Origin: Gemmata obscuriglobus
GTDB taxonomy: Bacteria; Planctomycetota; Planctomycetia; Gemmatales; Gemmataceae
Length of the DNA stretch: 32,000 bases
Direction: 5' to 3'
NCBI RefSeq assembly: GCF_008065095.1
Contig: NZ_CP042911.1
Location: 750,001 to 782,000 of the forward strand
Shown here: positions 1 to 14,133 of the stretch, one piece after another
Position numbering within the stretch: position 1 is the first letter of the stretch
Layout of the letters: every line of letters begins with the position of its first letter
The notes under the pieces: model-generated
Told to the model about the DNA's origin: nothing
Database searches by the model: none
The model's input: the letters and a program-made list of their open reading frames with translations, nothing else
Translations under genes and position numbers: made by a program

Positions 1-895
1 TGTACGTCACCACCTGATTCCCGTGCCACGGCTCGACGGTTGCGATCACCCGGGCGGCTTTACTCACTTGCCCCGGTTTGATCTCGCTCGCACCGCGGCT
101 GCCCTTGGGGTTGGCCTGGTTGCCTTCACCGATTTTGTTCACCGACCAGCCGGTCCCGCCCCCGCGGAGCACATGGACGCCGTCGTAGCTTGTGACCAGC
201 ACGCCGGTCATGGGGCGCCCCCCGGCGCCGCTATGTCCGAGAAGGGCGAAGTTGTGGCACACGTGCAGTTCTTCCGAGAGTACCTGCGTCTTCCAGTTTT
301 CCTTCTTCTCGGGCTCCTTTGCCGGTACCTTCAACGCCACGATGCGAACCGGCTTGCCGTCGGTCCAGTTGCCCTTCGCGCTCGACCCACGGCCCATCAG
401 CGGCACGTGAACGATTTCCGGCTTCCCGTCGCCGTCGATGTCGAAGCAGCGCACGCGGTGGACCGTCGGCTCCTCGCAGGGGAGTTCGTACATCGCCCAC
501 TCTTTGGTCGCGTCTGCACCGCGTTTCAGCCACACGAGTTGTCCCGGGTTTGCGGTGTCGAACGGCTTCCACGCCGCGCCGACCACCAGTTCCGGGAGCC
601 CGTCGCCGTCGATGTCGATCGGGGCGACACACACGTTGTCCGGCTTCGTCTTGCCGTCGAGGATGACGAACTTCTTCCAGCCCGCGCCCGCCTTCCCGGG
701 GTTCTGATACCAGACGACCTTGTGCTGATCGACCACCACGATGTCGGGCCTTTTGTCGCCATCAATGTCGGCGGTGACGACCGCGTACCCAATCTTCAGT
801 CCGGTGTCGATCTCTTGAGTTTTAAATCTCGGCGCGTCTGCGGCGAATGTCTGGAAACCGCAGAGTGCGGCGGTGACGGCGAGTAGGTGGCGCAC
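1..895 (-). CDS. Secreted FG-GAP/VCBS-repeat protein. Partial: the 3' end lies beyond the window start.
   Basis: My own reverse-strand translation from GTG (complement of 893-895) gives VRHLLAVTAALCGFQTFAADAP (signal-peptide-like). It then shows repeated DIDGDxxPD/E motifs (ADIDGDKRPDIVVVD, PIDIDGDGLPELVV, CFDIDGDGKPEIVHV), which are typical of FG-GAP Ca-binding repeats. The frame stays open to position 1. It is absent from the ORF track because it has no stop codon in the window. The + strand ORF 23..886 is its antisense shadow. Confidence 0.8.
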   Translation of the reverse strand, partial: MRHLLAVTAALCGFQTFAADAPRFKTQEIDTGLKIGYAVVTADIDGDKRPDIVVVDQHKVVWYQNPGKAGAGWKKFVILDGKTKPDNVCVAPIDIDGDGLPELVVGAAWKPFDTANPGQLVWLKRGADATKEWAMYELPCEEPTVHRVRCFDIDGDGKPEIVHVPLMGRGSSAKGNWTDGKPVRIVALKVPAKEPEKKENWKTQVLSEELHVCHNFALLGHSGAGGRPMTGVLVTSYDGVHVLRGGGTGWSVNKIGEGNQANPKGSRGASEIKPGQVSKAARVIATVEPWHGNQVVTY

Positions 896-1071: not shown

Positions 1072-1860
1072 ATGTCGATACCCGCGTCTCACCGCCCGGC
1101 CCGGGAATGGCTCCTGCTCCTGATCGCGCTGGCGGTCGTGGCGGTGGTGGTGGCGCCGCTGTGGCAGTTGATGGGCAGCCCGGAGTCCCGGGCCGAACTG
1201 GAGGCGCGGTGGACCCGGGACCGGCTCGCGAAGCTGTTCCTCGGCTTCGAGCAGGTGCTGTGTTACGTTTGCGCGGCGTGGGCCGTACTGATCCTCCAGA
1301 GCCGGTTCCGCGAGGTGCTGGCCCAGCGCCGGGCGTTCGCCCTGGACCTGTTGCCCACGGAAGAGGGGGCACGCATCTTGCCCGAAGACGCCCGCCCGCT
1401 CGGTCGGAAGCTCGAGCAGGTGACCGCCGGCCGGCCGCTCGTCCTGGCGAACCTGGTGCGGCTGGGGCTGGGGAAGTTCGCCGTGAGCAAGTCCGCGACC
1501 GACGTCGCGGAGGTGGTCCGGAACCAGGCCGATGTCGAAATGTCGCGGATGGTGACCGGGATGTCCACGGTCCACTACCTCGCCTGGGCGATCCCGGCGA
1601 TCGGTTTCGTCGGCACCGTCCGCGGGCTGGGCGGCGCGTTCGGCGCCGAAGCGACCGACATCGCGGAGTTCACGCGCCAGGCGAAGGACCAACTGAAGGT
1701 CGCGTTCGACTGCACGCTGGTGGCCCTCGTGCTGAGCCTCGTGCTGATGTATTTGGTCCACGCGGTGCAGCGGGCGGAGGAGTCGCTCGTCACGGACGCG
1801 CAGCAGTACTGCCAGGAGCACCTCCTGCTGCGGTTGTACTCAGGGGGCGAGGGGGAGTGA
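1072..1860 (+). CDS. ExbB/TolQ/MotA-family proton-channel protein (stator 'A' subunit-like)
   Basis: ATG at 1072 is preceded by GAGGA (1059-1063); the ORF track's TTG at 1039 is the maximal start. There are hydrophobic helices near the N-terminus plus the family signature IPAIGFVGTVRGLGGAF (compare E. coli ExbB GLLGTVWGIMHAF). A final TM reads FDCTLVALVLSLVLMYLV. The two channel Thr (T182 codon 1615-1617, T215 codon 1714-1716) are 33 residues apart, the same spacing as ExbB T148/T181 and TolQ T145/T178. Confidence 0.85.
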   Translation: MSIPASHRPAREWLLLLIALAVVAVVVAPLWQLMGSPESRAELEARWTRDRLAKLFLGFEQVLCYVCAAWAVLILQSRFREVLAQRRAFALDLLPTEEGARILPEDARPLGRKLEQVTAGRPLVLANLVRLGLGKFAVSKSATDVAEVVRNQADVEMSRMVTGMSTVHYLAWAIPAIGFVGTVRGLGGAFGAEATDIAEFTRQAKDQLKVAFDCTLVALVLSLVLMYLVHAVQRAEESLVTDAQQYCQEHLLLRLYSGGEGE

Positions 1861-1954
1861 GCGCGAACCAGGGTTCCGGAGGGGCCGAAGTGGCCGTCCG
1901 GTGTCTCTCGCGTGCTCTCGGCCCGGGTCCCACACCTACATTCGTCACACTGAC

Positions 1955-3181
1955 ATGCTCTGGTCCCGCAAGCCCGCTCCGGTTCACGACCGCCACCGCG
2001 CGGTCGGCATCGACCTGACCGCGAGCCGCGCCCGCGCGGAAGCGGCGGGCGAGAAGTCGCGCGCGCTGGTGCTCGACGCCCCGGACGAGGAGCTCGCGCT
2101 GTTCGTCGCCGGCGACCGGCGCGGGCCGGAGGTCGGGCGCGCCGGGGTCGGGTTGTACCGCAAGCTGCCGCACCTCGTTTGCTCCAACTTCCTCCCTGCG
2201 CTCGGGCAGTCGCGCGAGTGGAAGCTGGGCCGGCACACGCTCACGGCCGAGGCCGCGCTCGGGCTGGTGTTCGACCGGCTCCGGGCGGTTATTGGGGGGG
2301 AGTCGGACGGCACCGCGCTGGCGCTGCCGGCGTACCTGACGCCCTCGCAGGTGACCCGCGTCGGCGCCGCGGCGGGCCGCGCCAAGTTCGCCCTCAAGGG
2401 CACCGCGGTCGGCGGGCTGGCGCTGGCCGCGGACCGCGCCGCCGGGGTCCTCGGCGGGGACGGGGCCGGCCCCCCGCCGGCCGCCGGCTGGGTGGTGCCG
2501 CTGCGGCCCGGCGCGAGCGGCCCCGGCGCCGTGATGGTGCTCGACGCCGACGAGTTCGCCGTGTCGGCGCTGCTGGTGGCGGTCGACCGGGAGCAGGTGC
2601 GCGCGGTCGGTGGGGCGGCGTGGCCGCGGCTCTCGGTCAAGGTCTGGAAGGAGCGGCTCCTGGACGCCGTTGCGGACCGGTGCGTCAAGTTGTGCCGTCG
2701 CGACCCGCGCGACTCGGGCGAGGCCGAGCAACTGCTGTTCGAGCAACTGGACGAGGCGTTCGACCGCGCCCGCGCCGGCCAGCGCATCGGGCTGACCGTC
2801 CGCACCGCGCACTGGTTCCAGGACATCGTTCAGCAGCCCGAAGAGTTCGAGGCGCACTGCTCGGCGCTGGTCCGGCTCGCCGGCGAGTCGGTGCGCGACT
2901 TCGTAAACGGTATCGGGCTGGCCGAGCCGCCCCGCGCGGTCTGGCTGACCGACGCCGCCGGGCGCCTCCCCGGGTTCGTCCGGGCGGTCCACGCGAACAC
3001 CCCCGAGGGCACGGCGGTCGAGATCCTGCCCCCGAACGCCGTTGCGGCGGCGGCGGCGGCGCTGGTGCCGCGGTGGCTCACCGGGGCGCTCCCCCGGGCG
3101 CACCTCGATAGCCTGATCCCGCTGCCCCCGCGACCGGCCGCCCCGGCCGGCGCGCGAGCGACCCCGCGCGCCAGCGGGTGA
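1955..3181 (+). CDS. Hsp70/actin (ASKHA)-fold protein with degenerate nucleotide-binding motifs
   Basis: The order of Hsp70 landmarks is preserved. AVGIDLTAS matches [45 protein letters not shown] matches [38 protein letters not shown] matches [29 protein letters not shown] matches VLLVGGSTRIPxVQ. There is no signal peptide or TM. An alternative GTG start lies at 1901. Confidence 0.7.
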   Translation: [408 protein letters not shown]

Positions 3182-3205
3182 CCCGGACGACAGGAGGAAC
3201 CGTCG

Positions 3206-4720
3206 ATGCGAATCCGCCACAAGCAGCCCACGCTGGTCAGCATGTGGATGCTGGACGTGTTCTGCTGCGCGCTGGGGTGCGTCACGCTCCTGTTCCTGCT
3301 GAACAGCCGGCTGGCGACGGACGCCGCCCGCGCCAGCCGCGACGCCCGCGCCGACCTCGCGCACACCGACCAGCAGCTCGCCACCGCCCTCGCGGCGCTC
3401 GAAACCACCCGGACCAAGCTCGCGACCGAAGAAGCCGAACGCGGGAAGCTGACCGCGTCGCTCGCCGAGCTTGAAGGCGCGCGGCTCAAACTGGTTGACG
3501 AGTCCCGAGCACTCACCGAGGACCTCAAACTCGCCCGTACCGAGAAGGATGAAGCCGGGCGTAAACTTGACACCGCACGCGACGAGCTGAAAACCGCGCG
3601 GACCCTCCTCGATTCGACTCGAGAGAGCCTCGCCGGGCTCGAAAAGAAGGCCACCGCCACCGCGAAAGAGCTGGCCGACGCGCGGGCCGAGGCCGCCACC
3701 GCCGACCGGCTCCTCAAGGCGCGTCAGACCGACATCGACGAGCTCGCCAAGAAGGACGCCGCCCGGGCCACCCAGCTCGACGGCCTCCGGCGCTCGATGC
3801 TGTCCAAGGACGCCGAGCGGTCGGCGCTGGACGCGCAGCTCGCGGAGGCGCGCAAGGAACTCGCCGAGCTCGACGCCAAGCTCCGCGCGACCCGGCGGGA
3901 GCTGGACGCGCAGATCGCCGCCACGAAGGCCGGGGCCGCGAAAACGGGCGAGGAACTCGGCACCGCCCGCGCGCAGATCAAGGACCTGAACAAGAAGGTC
4001 GACGACGCGAACGCCACCATTATTGACCTCCAGGGTGAGAAGGCGAAGCTGGCCGACAAGTACGACCGGTTCCAGAAGGAAGCGGAGACGCGGTTCGCCG
4101 GGGTCGCGATGACCGGCAAGCGGGTCGTGTTCCTCGTGGACATGTCCGGCAGTATGGGCAAGCGTGACCTTCAGACTCTGGACGGTACGAAGTGGCCGCT
4201 GGTGGTCGAAACGGTGTGCAAAGTGATGCGCAGCATCTCGACGCTGGAGCGCTACCAGGTGGTCGTGTTCTCCAGTTCCGCCCGCTGGCTCTTTGACGAC
4301 GGGGAGTGGTGCTCGTTCGACGGCGAAAAATCCGTCGTCCGGGTACGCGACGCGCTGTTGAAAACGAAGCCGGTGGACGACACCAACATGTACGCGGCGT
4401 TCGAGAAGGCGTTCGGCCTGAAGACCTCGGGGCTCGACACGATGTACCTGTTCTCCGACGGCCTGCCGACGAGCGGCCCCGGGCTAACGCGGGAGCAGGA
4501 GAAAGCGAACCCGCCGCTGTCGGAGTCGGAACTCGGGGTGATCCTCGGTAAGCACGTGCGCGACACGCTCGCGTGCACGTGGAACAAGCCCGCTGCGGGG
4601 CAGTCGCGGGTGCGGATCAACGCCATCGGGTTCTACTTCGAGAGCGTCGAGGTGGGGGCGTTCCTCTGGTCGCTCGCGCGTGACAACGACGGGAGCTTCG
4701 TGGGGATGTCCAAACCGTAA
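3206..4720 (+). CDS. Membrane-anchored protein: TolR/ExbD-like TM helix (Asp17), long coiled coil, C-terminal vWA domain with an intact MIDAS
   Basis: A strong SD AGGAGG (3192-3197) precedes ATG 3206. The N-terminus KQPTLVSMWMLDVFCCALGCVTLLFLL resembles TolR INIVPLLDVLLVLLLIF and ExbD INVTPFIDVMLVLLIIF, including the LDV Asp (codon 3254-3256). Residues about 35-300 are Ala/Glu/Lys/Arg/Leu-rich heptad-like sequence. The vWA region reads KRVVFLVDMSGSMG (DxSxS, D312/S314/S316), then DDTNMY (T393) and LFSDGLPT (D418). Confidence 0.85.
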   Translation: MRIRHKQPTLVSMWMLDVFCCALGCVTLLFLLNSRLATDAARASRDARADLAHTDQQLATALAALETTRTKLATEEAERGKLTASLAELEGARLKLVDESRALTEDLKLARTEKDEAGRKLDTARDELKTARTLLDSTRESLAGLEKKATATAKELADARAEAATADRLLKARQTDIDELAKKDAARATQLDGLRRSMLSKDAERSALDAQLAEARKELAELDAKLRATRRELDAQIAATKAGAAKTGEELGTARAQIKDLNKKVDDANATIIDLQGEKAKLADKYDRFQKEAETRFAGVAMTGKRVVFLVDMSGSMGKRDLQTLDGTKWPLVVETVCKVMRSISTLERYQVVVFSSSARWLFDDGEWCSFDGEKSVVRVRDALLKTKPVDDTNMYAAFEKAFGLKTSGLDTMYLFSDGLPTSGPGLTREQEKANPPLSESELGVILGKHVRDTLACTWNKPAAGQSRVRINAIGFYFESVEVGAFLWSLARDNDGSFVGMSKP

Positions 4721-5026: not shown

Positions 5027-6085
5027 ATGTCACTTTATCCGAAGGGTCTGCGTCGCGGCTTTACGCTGATCGAATTGCTGGTAGTGATCGCGATTATCGC
5101 GATCTTGATCGGGCTGCTGTTGCCCGCCGTCCAGAAGGTGCGTGAAGCGGCAGCACGCATTAAGTGTACGAACAACCTGAAGCAGATCGCCATCGCGTGC
5201 CACGGGTTCCACGACGCCAACCAGCGGTTCCCAGCCGGCACCACGCTCGGCAAGGGCCGGAACGGCAACGGCTGGTACACGAACGCGCACGCCTACGACA
5301 ACCCGGCCGCCGGGTGGACCAACGCCACCACCAGCTACCCGGCCGACGGCCCGTTCTGGTCGTGGGCCATGCGGATCGCTCCGTACATGGAGCTGGACAA
5401 CGTCCAGAAGGCCGCCAACATGAGTGGCACCCCCGCCGGCTGGCCGTGGTGGCAGATCATCCCGGGAACTACCGGCGGCAGCAACACGGTGGTCGGCATC
5501 CAGGCGAAGACGTTCATCTGTCCTTCGGACTCGCGGTCTGACCTGTTCTGGACCGAGTCCGGCACCGGGAACCGCGCCGCCCTCACCGACTACATGGCGG
5601 TCACCGGCCGGGACACGTACAAGGAGACCATCTCCGGGAGCAAGCTGGCGGGTCAGGACGGGATCATGTACGTGAACTCGTCGGTCAAGATCGCGGGCAT
5701 CACCGACGGCACCAGCAACACGCTGATGATCGGGGAGCGCCCGCCGGCGAACAGCCTGGAGTACGGGTGGATGTGGGCCGGGGCCGGGTACGACCCCGGC
5801 GCGTTCGGCGCGGGTGACGTGGTGCTCGGGGTGCGCGAGCGGATCCCGTCGATCAACGACGCCCCGGGCGTGTACGGGCCGGGCAACCTGAACCAGGACA
5901 CCCACTTCAACCACTACTGGAGCCTGCACACGGGCGGCGCGATGTGGGCCCGGGCAGACGGCTCGGTGCAGTTCATCGCCTACTCGGCCGGGTCCCAGGT
6001 GGTCACCCAGGTCAACGGGGTCAACGTGACCCTCCTTGAGGCGATGGCCTCGCGGGCGGGCGGCGAAGTGTTTGCCGCCCCGTGA
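5027..6085 (+). CDS. DUF1559 / H-X9-DG protein with prepilin-type N-terminal cleavage/methylation domain
   Basis: N-terminus [56 protein letters not shown]-terminal [17 protein letters not shown] fits the H-X9-DG motif. This is a hallmark planctomycete family. Confidence 0.9.
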
Positions 6086-8771: not shown

Positions 8772-9809
8772 ATGCTCTTCTCTCCCATCCGCGCGCGCCG
8801 CGGGTTCACGCTCATCGAGTTGCTGGTGGTGATCGCGATCATCGCGATTCTGATCGGGCTGTTGCTGCCGGCCGTGCAGAAGGTGCGCGAGGCCGCCGCC
8901 CGCATGAAGTGCCAGAACAACCTCAAGCAGCTCGGGCTCGCGGTCCACAACTTCCACGACGTGATGAACGGGCTCCCGAGCACCCGGTACACCACCCCGG
9001 TCGGCACCCCGAACCGCGGGGCGGCCCCGGTGTACGACACGATCAGCGGGTTCGTGTACCTGCTCCCGTACGCGGAGCAGGCGAACCTGAAGGACTCCAT
9101 TTACAACAACGCGGCCTTCGTCGCCGGCACCGGCGGCGCCCCCTGGGACTCGAACTTCGCGCCTTGGACCGTCGTCCTCTCGCTGTTCCAGTGCCCGTCC
9201 GACGCCGGCACGACGGCCAGCGGCACGGCCCCGCGGAACTACCACATGAACGTCGGCGACCGGTACGACGGCAGCCGCGGCGCGTTCCAGGCGGTCCCGC
9301 AGGGCGGGGCCACCCCCGAAAAGCACAGCGCCGGGCTGCTGGCCATCAGCGACGGCACGAGCAACACGCTCCTCTTCTCCGAGCGCCGGCGGCCGACCGG
9401 CGCCAACGAGATCGCCCGGTTGGGGCTGACCGCCTCGACCGTGCCGGGCGACTGCCGCGCGCTGTGGAACGGCACCCAGTACAGCGCCGTCGTCACGCAC
9501 ACCCCGTCGAGCCGGTACGGCGACGGCCGGTCCCTCTACGGCGAGATCCTGACCGTCCTGCCGCCGAACGGCCCCGGGTGCCACTCGGACTCCGGGTGGG
9601 ACGGGAACCGCGGGTTCTTCACCGCGAACAGCAACCACACCGGCGGGGTGAACGCGTGCCTGGCCGACGGGAGCGTCCGGTTCGTCCGCGACAGCGTCAG
9701 CGTCGGCGACCAGACCGTCAACTCCAGCACTGTGGCCGGGACCAGCCCCTACGGCGTCTGGGGCGCGCTCGGCAGCCGCAACGGGGGCGAGGTCGTCACC
9801 CTCGACTGA
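8772..9809 (+). CDS. DUF1559 / H-X9-DG protein with prepilin-type N-terminal domain (paralog of 5027..6085)
   Basis: [55 protein letters not shown], plus HTGGVNACLADGSVRFV (H-X9-DG). The first ~130 nt after the RGF codons are also closely similar to 5052-5190 at the DNA level. Confidence 0.9.
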   Translation: MLFSPIRARRGFTLIELLVVIAIIAILIGLLLPAVQKVREAAARMKCQNNLKQLGLAVHNFHDVMNGLPSTRYTTPVGTPNRGAAPVYDTISGFVYLLPYAEQANLKDSIYNNAAFVAGTGGAPWDSNFAPWTVVLSLFQCPSDAGTTASGTAPRNYHMNVGDRYDGSRGAFQAVPQGGATPEKHSAGLLAISDGTSNTLLFSERRRPTGANEIARLGLTASTVPGDCRALWNGTQYSAVVTHTPSSRYGDGRSLYGEILTVLPPNGPGCHSDSGWDGNRGFFTANSNHTGGVNACLADGSVRFVRDSVSVGDQTVNSSTVAGTSPYGVWGALGSRNGGEVVTLD

Positions 9810-11965: not shown

Positions 11966-12658
11966 TTACTTCTCTGCGTATTCAGTCGGGTCGGTCATGT
12001 GGGCGTCGCGGAACGCCTGCCGGCGCTCCGCGCACTTGTTGCAGGTGCCACAGTGCAAGCCGCGCACGGGGCGGATGCAGGAGAACGTGTGCTCCAGCGG
12101 CCGCCCGCGGCCGCGGCGCATCACGTCCACCTTGTGAAGGGCCGCGTACGGGCGCAGCACCCTCACGTCGCCACGCACCGCGGAACTCACGATCCCGGCG
12201 AAGCCGTCGTAGAACGCGGGCGTCGCGTCCGGGAACGGGTTCGTACCGAGCGGCGCGGTCGCGACGAACGGCACCGCGTTCAAATGACACCAGATGAGCG
12301 GTTTGGCGAGCAGGAGAACGTTGCGCCCGGGCAGGAACACCGCCTCGTCGGCGGAGTCGGCACCGGGCACCCCCTCGCCGGTGGTGCTCCAGTGGGCACC
12401 GTACACGTCGGCGGTCGGCTGATCGAGAACCCGCAGCGGGCGCAAGTTCGGGGCCGCGATTGCTGCCAGGAAGCGTTCCAGGTAGGCACGCTCGACGGCC
12501 TCCCAGTGCAGCCCGGAGCGCACATACAGCGGGAACACGACGGGGCACGCGCGGACCGCTTCGGCGAGCAGGATGGCGCTGTCCAGCCCGCCGCTGACGA
12601 GCACCGCGAGCGGGGCGTCGGGCAGCGGCGCGGGTTGCGGGTCGAGGGTGGCGGTCAC
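11966..12658 (-). CDS. queC: 7-cyano-7-deazaguanine synthase
   Basis: LAVLVSGGLDS (PP-loop), FLPGRN, and the C-terminal Zn cluster CIRPVRGLHCGTCNKCAERR. The GTG start (complement of 12656-12658) overlaps the upstream gene's TGA in a GTGA arrangement. Confidence 0.85.
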   Translation of the reverse strand: MTATLDPQPAPLPDAPLAVLVSGGLDSAILLAEAVRACPVVFPLYVRSGLHWEAVERAYLERFLAAIAAPNLRPLRVLDQPTADVYGAHWSTTGEGVPGADSADEAVFLPGRNVLLLAKPLIWCHLNAVPFVATAPLGTNPFPDATPAFYDGFAGIVSSAVRGDVRVLRPYAALHKVDVMRRGRGRPLEHTFSCIRPVRGLHCGTCNKCAERRQAFRDAHMTDPTEYAEK

Positions 12659-14133
12659 CGGCAGGCCCGCACGCGACGACGCGGCTTCGGACCGCCCGGC
12701 CTCGGCCCGGGACCGCCCGGGGCCGGCCCGGCAGGGCCACCCGGAGGGGGCATTCCCGCGCCGCCTCCCCCGCCCCCGCTCCCGCCCCGCGGGTTGAACT
12801 TGTTCGCGACATTGCTCACCGATTCCTTCAGGTCGGCGGACTCGACCGACGAGCGGGCGTAGAACAGGTCGCCGGACGAGCCGCACCCGATGTTCGCCAG
12901 CATTTGCGCCTTGATCTTGTTGCCGAGCGGGTCGACCTCACTCTTCCACCACCGCGGCGGGGTGCCCTCGTCCCCCTTGCCCAGGTCGCTCTCCTTCCAC
13001 TTCCGGCTGGTGCTCGACGCTTTCTCGCTGTCGGCGTACCACACCACGACCTCGAACCGCACCTCGCGGCTGCCGATACTGGCCTTGAGCCCGTACCCCT
13101 TGCTCCCGCTCAGCGTCTCCGCGATGGTGCGCGCGAGCTGGGCCTTGCCGTCGTCGCTGCCGCCGGCACCGTCTTTGCTGGCCGCCGGAGCGGCCGGGGG
13201 CTTCGAGTCGCCCTGGAACAGTTGCAAGCTCCAAAACGTGCCGCGGGTCACCCGTTTGCCGAGTTCACCCATACGCGATCCGGCGGTCTTGTCCTGGGAG
13301 CCCGCGTTCCCGCTCAGAATCTTCTTGAACACCGGTTCGGGCACATCCTGCGGGCAGACGACAACGAGCCGGTTAGTAGGAGCGAAGACCCGCGTCCGGG
13401 GCGCCCCGCTGCTGAACCCGTCCACGGCGTAGTAGGTGCGCCCGTCGAGGGACTGCTGCTTCGCACCGGGCAGCTTGCCCAAGCCGTCGGCGTTGAACTC
13501 CGATTTGGTGCGGAACACCATCGCGGAGTGGCCCTTGCTGTTGGACCCGAACAGGACGTGGTCGGCGAGGCCGTCGAGGTCGTTGGCGCCGATCGCGCGG
13601 CCGATGCCGTCGCCCGCGAGCTTGAACTCGCTGCCGCCGAACGTACCCGAGAGCGCCTTATAGAACTCCGGGTACTTTTGCGCGTGCCCCAGGTTCAACC
13701 CGGACAGCGAGTCGGCGTCCTCGGGCACGTAGTGCATCATTTCGACCGACTTCGGCGTGCGGCCGAGCAGGTACACCAACAGTCCGGTGACGCAAGCGAG
13801 CATCACCAGCCCGGCGACGATCACCCCGACGAGCAACCCCTTGCTGGTCTCGCGCTTCTTGGACTTCCGCTTCTTGGGGGCCTTCGGGTCGGCGCCGCCC
13901 TTGGCGGGCTTGTCTTTCTTCTTGCCCTCGCCGGCCCCGTCGCGCTCCCGGTCCTTCTTGGGCCGGTCGTCGGACTTCTTCTTCTTGGGCCGGTCGTCGC
14001 CTTCGTCGTCCGCCGGCTCGGGCGCGACGAACGTGGTGCCGCACTTGGGGCACTCGATGTCCGTGCCGGCGTCCGGGGCGTCGTCGAGTTTGAGTTTGGC
14101 CCGGCATTCCGGGCAGCGGAGTTCAACGGCCAT
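12655..14133 (-). CDS. Zinc-ribbon (MJ0042-like), basic linker, single TM, extracytoplasmic domain protein with a Gly/Pro-rich C-terminal tail
   Basis: LRCPECRAKLKL...IECPKCGTTF is followed by a Lys/Asp/Arg-rich linker. That linker includes an 18-nt direct repeat at 13955-13972 and 13982-13999, encoding DDRPKK. The TM is LLVGVIVAGLVMLACVTGLLVYLL. About 330 aa of uncharacterised domain follow, and the tail reads GGSGGGGGGAGMPPPGGPAGPAPGGPGPRPGGP. Confidence 0.75.
   Translation of the reverse strand: MAVELRCPECRAKLKLDDAPDAGTDIECPKCGTTFVAPEPADDEGDDRPKKKKSDDRPKKDRERDGAGEGKKKDKPAKGGADPKAPKKRKSKKRETSKGLLVGVIVAGLVMLACVTGLLVYLLGRTPKSVEMMHYVPEDADSLSGLNLGHAQKYPEFYKALSGTFGGSEFKLAGDGIGRAIGANDLDGLADHVLFGSNSKGHSAMVFRTKSEFNADGLGKLPGAKQQSLDGRTYYAVDGFSSGAPRTRVFAPTNRLVVVCPQDVPEPVFKKILSGNAGSQDKTAGSRMGELGKRVTRGTFWSLQLFQGDSKPPAAPAASKDGAGGSDDGKAQLARTIAETLSGSKGYGLKASIGSREVRFEVVVWYADSEKASSTSRKWKESDLGKGDEGTPPRWWKSEVDPLGNKIKAQMLANIGCGSSGDLFYARSSVESADLKESVSNVANKFNPRGGSGGGGGGAGMPPPGGPAGPAPGGPGPRPGGPKPRRRVRACR

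Follow-up and report, generated by a model that had tools for sequence, protein, structure and literature searches.

A conserved Gemmatales gene triad joining a TolQ-like channel and an Hsp70-fold protein to a membrane-anchored vWA protein is a variant of a computationally predicted class of ion-driven motors

Flagella, Ton uptake, Tol-Pal division, gliding with type IX secretion and Zorya defence run on ion-driven membrane motors of the 5:2 type, and with each new output domain of such motors another use to which the proton gradient is put at the cell envelope has come to light. A recent study predicted a further class of them computationally (PMC12204202; Mol Biol Evol, June 2025), having found that membrane-tethered proteins carrying the vWA (von Willebrand factor A) domain tightly co-occur with tolQ homologues in the absence of tolR/exbD. 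These vWA proteins, whose genes occur predominantly as heterologous pairs and whose hosts are mainly Proteobacteria and Verrucomicrobia, contain a TolR/ExbD-like trans-pore helix with a conserved Asp but not the SHLS motif of TolA/TonB, and in the AlphaFold 3 models of the predicted 5:2 motors made in that study, the pentamer's Thr ring surrounds the Asp residues. For Planctomycetes it names only its other vWA family, and nowhere in its text or supplements do FHA, Hsp70, kinase or Gemmata appear. This was the only report found in the literature on MotA/TolQ proteins with vWA, FHA or Hsp70, in which an Hsp70-fold partner is not described, and the 2020 eLife survey of vWA-MoxR systems (PMC7159879) mentions no link to MotA, ExbB or TolQ. 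Here we describe three adjacent genes, referred to as genes 1, 2 and 3, which lie near the start of a 32,000-nucleotide stretch of the Gemmata obscuriglobus genome (contig NZ_CP042911.1, positions 750,001 to 782,000; hereafter the window) and encode a TolQ-like membrane protein, an Hsp70-fold protein and a vWA protein whose transmembrane helix bears an Asp. A first-pass annotation, made from the letters of the window, had presented this triad as an undescribed machine that matches no known system. That judgement did not stand, since 5:2 motors built from a TolQ homologue and an Asp-helix vWA protein were already predicted in PMC12204202; the core idea has thus appeared in print before, as a computational prediction, and what Gemmata carries is a variant of that predicted motor class. 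The addition made by the present analysis is the putative Hsp70-fold pseudo-ATPase, which is a conserved core component across phyla.

Like the published class, the Gemmata locus has a tolQ-like gene adjoining a gene for an Asp-helix vWA protein, with no SHLS motif and no tolR/exbD, but it differs in having a single vWA gene where that class predominantly has two heterologous ones. It differs also in the stalk, since the distance from the Asp to the metal-ion-dependent adhesion site (MIDAS) of the vWA domain is 231-371 residues in Gemmatales versus 141-158 residues in the proteobacterial and acidobacterial clusters that fit the class, which makes the Gemmatales stalk 1.5-2.4 times longer. The match to the class is by its description, and homology was established to Woeseiaceae-type clusters of the same layout, the reference proteins of the class being those of Idiomarina loihiensis. 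The families into which genes 1 and 3 fall, the modelled fold of gene 2, the invariance of key residues, synteny and cross-phylum homology together lead us to regard the triad, with moderate confidence, as a 5:2 ion-driven machine in the membrane, akin to MotAB, ExbBD and TolQR.

Gene 1 lies inside the MotA/ExbB/TolQ family, scoring 37.4 bits against Pfam MotA_ExbB (PF01618), for which the cut-off is 22.9. A profile of its wider family matched TolQ structures over 187 residues with an E value of 4.6e-4, reaching residues 26-212 of E. coli TolQ (8ODT), and in this alignment GFxGTVRG falls on GLFGTVWG of TolQ and AFxxTLVAL on ALIATAIGL. The ExbB/TolQ signature that the first-pass annotation had seen (GTVRGLGGAF, residues 181-190) and the 33-residue spacing of the two pore-lining threonines were confirmed, and the alignment places T182 and T215 on T145 and T178 of TolQ. 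The counterparts of these two residues in ExbB are T148 and T181. Neither threonine varies among the 69 Gemmatales orthologues of gene 1, which are 56-90% identical, or among 25 distant relatives down to 28% identity. Hydropathy indicated helices at residues 8-37, 55-75 and 207-235, and a less hydrophobic helix carrying the GTV motif at about 166-190; compared with TolQ, there is one extra N-terminal hydrophobic helix. Presumably, gene 1 provides the predicted pentameric ion-channel ring. The subfamily to which it belongs is large and distinct, with 823 cluster representatives at E <1e-10 and more than 8000 clusters at 90% identity, and its members include Gammaproteobacteria (Woeseiaceae) and Acidobacteriota. 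Five long relatives of 450-955 amino acids (P0293, P0295, P0335, P0358 and P0369), which are 35-42% identical to gene 1 in the channel core, all have a long C-terminal coiled-coil tail recalling ZorA, and most of the long relatives that were read start with a zinc ribbon, P0295 being without one. A zinc-ribbon protein encoded in the window itself (12655-14133, minus strand), considered as a possible paralogue of gene 1 in its long form, proved to be unrelated.

The N-terminus of gene 3, MRIRHKQPTLVSMWMLDVFCCALGCVTLLFLL, consists of the basic tail MRIRHKQP followed by a single hydrophobic segment at residues 8-37, and the basic residues preceding the helix fit an N-in topology. All 66 sequences have D17, which lies within MWMLDVFCC, and hardly any change is seen in residues 8-29, whereas the whole protein is only 35-70% identical among orthologues. 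Such a conserved helix fits packing inside a protein pore, unlike a generic anchor or a cleaved signal peptide, and by its conservation pattern the N-terminus, as the best-conserved segment of the protein, does not resemble a signal peptide. Since the helix with the invariant D17 is the most conserved part of gene 3, we assign to this protein the role of the B subunit and predict that it forms a dimeric axle. Just past D17, within residues 17-25 (window 3254-3280), three cysteines of the membrane helix (C20, C21 and C25) are invariant as well, and C21 and G24 are invariant across phyla; TolR, ExbD and MotB have no comparable Cys-rich helix.

Outside the membrane, gene 3 is made of a helical stalk and a vWA domain, not of an ExbD/TolR fold or an OmpA-like peptidoglycan-binding domain. 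In the AlphaFold2 (AF2) model (mean predicted local distance difference test score, pLDDT, 79.7), helices occupy residues 10-147, 153-255 and 259-296 and are followed by an alpha/beta domain at residues 306-502; the break at 148-152 is confidently modelled and conserved. The vWA domain scored 31.9 bits against Pfam VWA_2 (cut-off 27), Foldseek matched it to MIDAS-bearing vWA domains such as those of C2a, TRAP, CMG2 and the pilin PilB (E 1e-6 to 1e-5), and the MIDAS residues D312, S314, S316, T393 and D418 are all invariant in the 66 sequences. Pfam, AF2 and this invariance bear out the architecture first proposed for gene 3: the D17 helix leads into a stalk, given as about 265 residues of coiled coil in the first-pass annotation and here as about 260 helical residues, which ends in a MIDAS-complete vWA domain. 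The length of gene 3 ranges from 437 to 577 amino acids across orthologues and varies mostly in blocks of 14 or 28 residues near residue 241; the hotspot, at residues ~241-255 (window ~3926-3970), thereby gains or loses two or four heptads, and the AF2 confidence of gene 3 is lowest at residues 246-273. Taken modulo 7, the Asp-to-MIDAS distances of Gemmatales fall almost entirely into classes 0, 1, 4 and 5, and classes 3 and 6 were never seen, a distribution which, in sequences related by descent, would fit heptad-preserving changes in a coiled coil. A 100% identical G. obscuriglobus protein is labelled 'Chromosome partition protein Smc' at NCBI, which is an artefact because the label reflects the coiled coil only, and the JGI label of its relatives, 'predicted nucleic acid-binding Zn-ribbon protein', is equally artefactual; gene 3 is a membrane-anchored vWA protein. 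NCBIfam SMC and Rad50 matches to gene 3 were discarded as coiled-coil noise.

Relatives of gene 2 were sought in one genome per species, and the 111 found were nearly all from Gemmatales (Gemmata, Frigoriglobus, Limnoglobus, Fimbriiglobus, Urbifossiella and Zavarzinella); a few metagenome-assembled genomes that bear gene 2 under other taxon labels are read as mislabelled. Gene 1 was present upstream of gene 2 in 65 of the 65 loci with enough flank, and gene 3 downstream of it in 61 of 67, so that synteny of the triad is kept across Gemmatales. The median gaps are 88 nt between genes 1 and 2 and 38 nt between genes 2 and 3, and at five loci the end of gene 2 overlaps the start of gene 3 by 4 nt. 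Because this arrangement recurs in about 60 Gemmatales species genomes, it lies far beyond chance. Counting at the locus, a single vWA gene is present in the window and at the 61 Gemmatales loci. Where gene 3 is missing, gene 2 is followed in one locus by an IS110-type transposase in place of gene 3 (L044, 8904-10319) and in another by an amidohydrolase-like gene on the opposite strand (L009); further loci of this kind are L016, L023 and L074. A metagenome scan with two intermediate relatives of gene 1 (P0249 and P0251) retrieved only further Gemmataceae loci, and no intermediate between the Gemmatales and the proteobacterial layouts was seen in it.

A planctomycete-specific reading of the triad had to be given up, since all three proteins have same-order homologues in gammaproteobacterial (Woeseiaceae-type) and acidobacterial clusters. 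In seven such loci (L081-L087) the order is a Ser/Thr kinase with TPR, a PEGA and FGE-sulfatase protein, a small protein, the TolQ-like gene, a protein ending in an FHA domain and two vWA proteins, and no ExbD, TolR or MotB was found among the Pfam matches of these loci. Gene 1 is 33% identical to the TolQ-like protein of these clusters (144 bits). The FHA-ending protein, of 455-468 amino acids, directly follows the TolQ-like gene, that is, it stands in the position of gene 2, with which it aligned in hhalign at 98% probability (E 2e-13, 272 columns). In BLASTP, gene 3 matched both vWA proteins, at 61 and 46 bits. These paired proteins, of ~365 and ~330 amino acids, have the same succession of transmembrane helix, coiled coil and vWA domain, and both start with [MR]RRRR..FS[ML]SFLD[CV]..CGFGA..LL, in which the Asp, C21 and G24 are invariant relative to Gemmata; the helix pattern [FM]LD..CC..G is common to gene 3 and both paralogues. 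An FHA domain and a kinase are both present in six loci (L081-L082 and L084-L087), where a kinase match is on record for five and L087 is counted because it shares the gene layout of L086, and both are absent from L093, L094 and Gemmatales. By its gene content, the Gemmatales form is a reduced version of this module, with one vWA gene, neither FHA nor kinase, and a stalk about twice as long. The PEGA and FGE-sulfatase protein and the small protein always precede the TolQ-like gene in the distant clusters; in L081, the only locus where it was read, the small protein is acidic and has a signal-like N-terminus, and it could be a ligand of the MIDAS.

Gene 2 is 100% identical to GobsT_06640, which is annotated as 'hypothetical'. 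Its AF2 model (pLDDT 73.5; predicted TM-score, pTM, 0.79) confirmed the Hsp70/actin fold that had been proposed for it: the top 50 Foldseek matches in the PDB were all nucleotide-binding domains (NBDs) of Hsp70, DnaK or Hsp110, with E values of 1e-14 to 1e-12, TM-scores of 0.60-0.66 and a probability of 1.0, and no PilM, FtsA or MreB structure was among these 50. By sequence, no match was found in Pfam (including PF00012), in NCBIfam or, with a profile, among PDB sequences, and an hhalign comparison with the E. coli DnaK NBD gave no signal (0.3% probability); the link to Hsp70 is one of modelled fold. No NCBIfam model exists for any component of the triad. The protein has the size of an NBD, without a substrate-binding domain, and shows by eye GIDLTASR and DADEF in place of the Gly-rich phosphate loops and no recognisable ATPase motifs, which suggests that the ATPase activity has been lost. 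The term 'eroded', used of gene 2 in the first-pass annotation, therefore holds for its ATPase motifs but not for the protein overall, which has 75 invariant columns in 29 sequences of 58-86% identity. No support was obtained for the proposed analogy with the MreB link of the Agl motor; the FHA domain and the adjoining Ser/Thr kinase in other phyla are the better clue to its role. Because the two co-occur in the distant clusters, the gene content suggests that gene 2, predicted to be cytoplasmic, is a regulatory adaptor.

Taken together, family match, synteny, the invariance of D17, T182 and T215 and the conserved helix support the proposal that gene 1 forms a pentamer in which gene 3 is the B subunit that bears the Asp, while we infer the 5:2 stoichiometry, the topology, the docking site of gene 2 and the nature of the work done. 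In the mechanism that we propose, gene 1 would form the channel ring, presumably as a pentamer, and the N-terminal helices of two gene 3 molecules would sit in its pore, D17 facing the T182 and T215 rings. D17 would take up and release the coupling ion, and the ion flow would turn or pull the gene 3 dimer, whose stalk would project the MIDAS vWA head into the periplasm, where the head may bind an acidic ligand via a metal ion. On the cytoplasmic side, gene 2, as a putative pseudo-ATPase, would dock on the cytoplasmic domain of gene 1 or on the basic N-tail of gene 3 and act as an adaptor or clutch, which in the FHA/kinase variants may be phospho-regulated.

The same parts could instead make up a signalling device rather than a force generator, with the vWA head sensing a periplasmic ligand or metal, the stalk transmitting, the Hsp70-like protein relaying and gene 1 serving as a gated channel or as a sensor of the proton-motive force. 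It is known that vWA/MIDAS domains switch conformation upon ligand binding, as the integrin I domains do, and such switching, the conserved 148-152 break, which could act as a hinge, and the tie of the module in distant clusters to a Ser/Thr kinase with TPR, an FHA domain and a PEGA/FGE-sulfatase protein would all suit a sensor. Nevertheless, the complete ion-coupling set, the Asp and the two Thr rings, is retained, as an energy-transducing motor needs, and in Gemmatales the core persists with neither a kinase nor an FHA domain. On balance, we consider the signalling device unlikely.

Gene 3 might also be a mere membrane-anchored vWA/coiled-coil protein of BatA type, with gene 1 serving an ExbD/TolR encoded elsewhere and the adjacency reflecting a shared envelope function. 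Gene 3 has no match to ExbD/TolR (PF02472) or MotB in Pfam or NCBIfam, and a profile of its helix, searched against all PDB sequences up to an E value of 10, brought up no chain of TolR, ExbD or MotB; the few matches of that search (PDE1B, E ~1) were rejected as chance. This lack of sequence-level homology of the helix to TolR/ExbD is what a mere anchor would show, the six loci that carry genes 1 and 2 with no adjacent gene 3 would suit it too, and the absence of ExbD/TolR covers 32 kb of the genome. Yet a passive anchor would not be expected to keep a buried Asp and about 20 residues around it unchanged when identity elsewhere in the protein has fallen to 35%. Across phyla, the same helix is found next to this one TolQ-like subfamily, and ExbD is absent from the vicinity, and so we find this explanation distinctly unlikely.

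A Zorya-like anti-phage defence system, in which a MotAB-like envelope sensor signals to a cytoplasmic partner, is very improbable: the weak PADLOC match of gene 1 to ZorA (E 1.3e-4), the ZorA-like tails of its long relatives and the kinase and FHA signalling parts of the distant clusters speak for it, but the ZorA match does not extend beyond the shared MotA core, a tail is missing from gene 1, a peptidoglycan-binding domain from gene 3 and any ZorC/D or nuclease effector from the window, and the same chromosomal context in at least 45 Gemmatales genomes, with identity tracking taxonomy, indicates vertical, housekeeping-like inheritance and therefore argues against a mobile defence island. 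PADLOC was likewise set aside as a defence assignment for the locus, since gene 1 matched only the ZorA core, weakly, and the LmuB and JetC matches of gene 3 were coiled-coil noise.

Several points weigh against the motor that we favour. The likeness of the gene 3 helix to those of TolR, ExbD and MotB is at the level of a motif, so homology cannot be claimed, and retention of the helix in the membrane is judged from its conservation. Both the stoichiometry and the placement of D17 within the pore are predictions. At six loci, scattered across the order, genes 1 and 2 have no gene 3 next to them, and in some loci the gaps extend to about 600 nt; a single operon is not guaranteed, because the gap between genes 1 and 2 reaches 580 nt in some genomes. 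Finally, the stalk may fold back instead of spanning ~38 nm, given the pTM of 0.45 for the gene 3 monomer and the break at 148-152, and the link that the first-pass annotation drew from the stalk to the enlarged planctomycete periplasm is conjectural, although the stalk is indeed longer than in the proteobacterial versions.

The features of the locus are collected in Table 1. The first-pass annotation was correct in reading three same-strand genes with gaps of 94 nt (genes 1 and 2) and 24 nt (genes 2 and 3) and a strong Shine-Dalgarno sequence before gene 3; the three open reading frames (ORFs) have a third-position GC content of 0.89-0.94, which is of coding type, and the starts of genes 1 and 2 are supported because the orthologue alignments begin at the same points. 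Its statement that no separate ExbD/TolR, TonB, Pal, OmpA-like or ZorC/D gene is present was borne out within the window, where none of the 23 coding-type ORFs encodes ExbD/TolR, TonB/TolA, OmpA/Pal, MotB or a Zor protein. The downstream genes, for a DUF1559 prepilin-like protein, a CDP-alcohol phosphatidyltransferase and an OYE-type reductase, are unrelated. Two DUF1559 paralogues with a prepilin-type N-terminal methylation motif (5027-6085 and 8772-9809, both on the plus strand) also lie downstream and are typical of a large planctomycete family; this neighbour is kept in only nine loci, and no link to the triad was seen.

Table 1. Features of the triad and of its upstream neighbour, in window coordinates
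Feature	Position	Strand	Description or basis
FG-GAP / AUDH-type beta-propeller protein	2-895	-	Secreted; Pfam FG-GAP_3, FG-GAP, AUDH_beta_propeller
Gene 1	1072-1860	+	262 aa, MotA/ExbB/TolQ-family membrane protein
T182 codon (gene 1)	1615-1617	+	First pore-lining threonine, in GFVGTVRGL; aligns with TolQ T145
T215 codon (gene 1)	1714-1716	+	Second pore-lining threonine, in AFDCTLVAL; aligns with TolQ T178
Gene 2	1955-3181	+	408 aa, soluble; Hsp70 nucleotide-binding-domain (ASKHA) fold by AF2 and Foldseek
Shine-Dalgarno sequence AGGAGG	3192-3197	+	8 nt before the gene 3 ATG; direct sequence reading
Gene 3	3206-4720	+	504 aa, bitopic: basic tail, Asp transmembrane helix, helical stalk, vWA head
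Transmembrane helix (gene 3)	3233-3301	+	Residues 10-32 (LVSMWMLDVFCCALGCVTLLFLL), D17 codon 3254-3256; conservation
Helical / coiled-coil stalk (gene 3)	3311-4093	+	Residues ~36-296; AF2
vWA domain (gene 3)	4121-4711	+	Complete MIDAS (D312-x-S314-x-S316, T393, D418); Pfam VWA_2, Foldseek

The gene for the FG-GAP protein, whose N-terminus reads like a signal peptide, lies directly upstream of gene 1 in divergent orientation in 45 Gemmatales loci, including distant genera (Zavarzinella); in loci L001-L079 its position is ~4.7-6.0 kb. Pairing of a propeller with a vWA domain occurs in integrins. Because a beta-propeller beside a MIDAS vWA domain recalls these proteins, the FG-GAP protein is a possible partner or ligand of the vWA head, the alternative being simple retained synteny. 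In a more far-reaching version of the motor, which we regard as doubtful, gene 2 would be a true third subunit or clutch, phosphoswitched through FHA elsewhere and constitutive in Gemmatales, and the whole would work as an integrin powered by the proton-motive force, its motor tugging at or reorienting a vWA head that binds a periplasmic or outer-membrane partner, for which the FG-GAP propeller is a candidate, and its stalk length being tuned to the width of the periplasm. What sets the proposed 5:2 machine apart is that its axle itself bears a metal-dependent binding domain and is accompanied by a conserved cytoplasmic Hsp70-fold partner. The Gemmatales form, as a minimal three-gene version present order-wide, offers a compact target for structural work and planctomycete genetics, and the natural series of stalk lengths could show how such a motor spans the periplasm.

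Compared with TolQR/ExbBD, gene 1 belongs to the same superfamily and conserves both pore threonines, and gene 3 has a basic tail and a single helix with the Asp at a similar depth (LLDVLLVLL in TolR); on the other hand, gene 1 has its extra N-terminal helix and is only distantly matched to TolQ (E 4.6e-4), the helix of gene 3 is rich in Cys and Gly (DVFCCALGC), and there is neither the periplasmic domain of TolR/ExbD nor a third protein of TolA/TonB type. With MotAB/PomAB and ZorAB the triad shares the proposed 5:2 logic, the Asp of the B subunit and an output domain outside the membrane, but it has no OmpA-like peptidoglycan-binding domain, ZorA tail or ZorC/D, and nothing in the window or the loci points to a flagellar or defence context. 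The model of gene 2 superposes on the NBD of Hsp70/DnaK (TM 0.60-0.66), from which gene 2 differs by lacking detectable sequence similarity, a substrate-binding domain and the Gly-rich phosphate loops. ASKHA adaptors of envelope machines include PilM, the cytoplasmic domain of GspL and FtsA, and gene 2 resembles PilM and GspL in being a soluble ASKHA-fold protein encoded beside a bitopic coiled-coil envelope protein.

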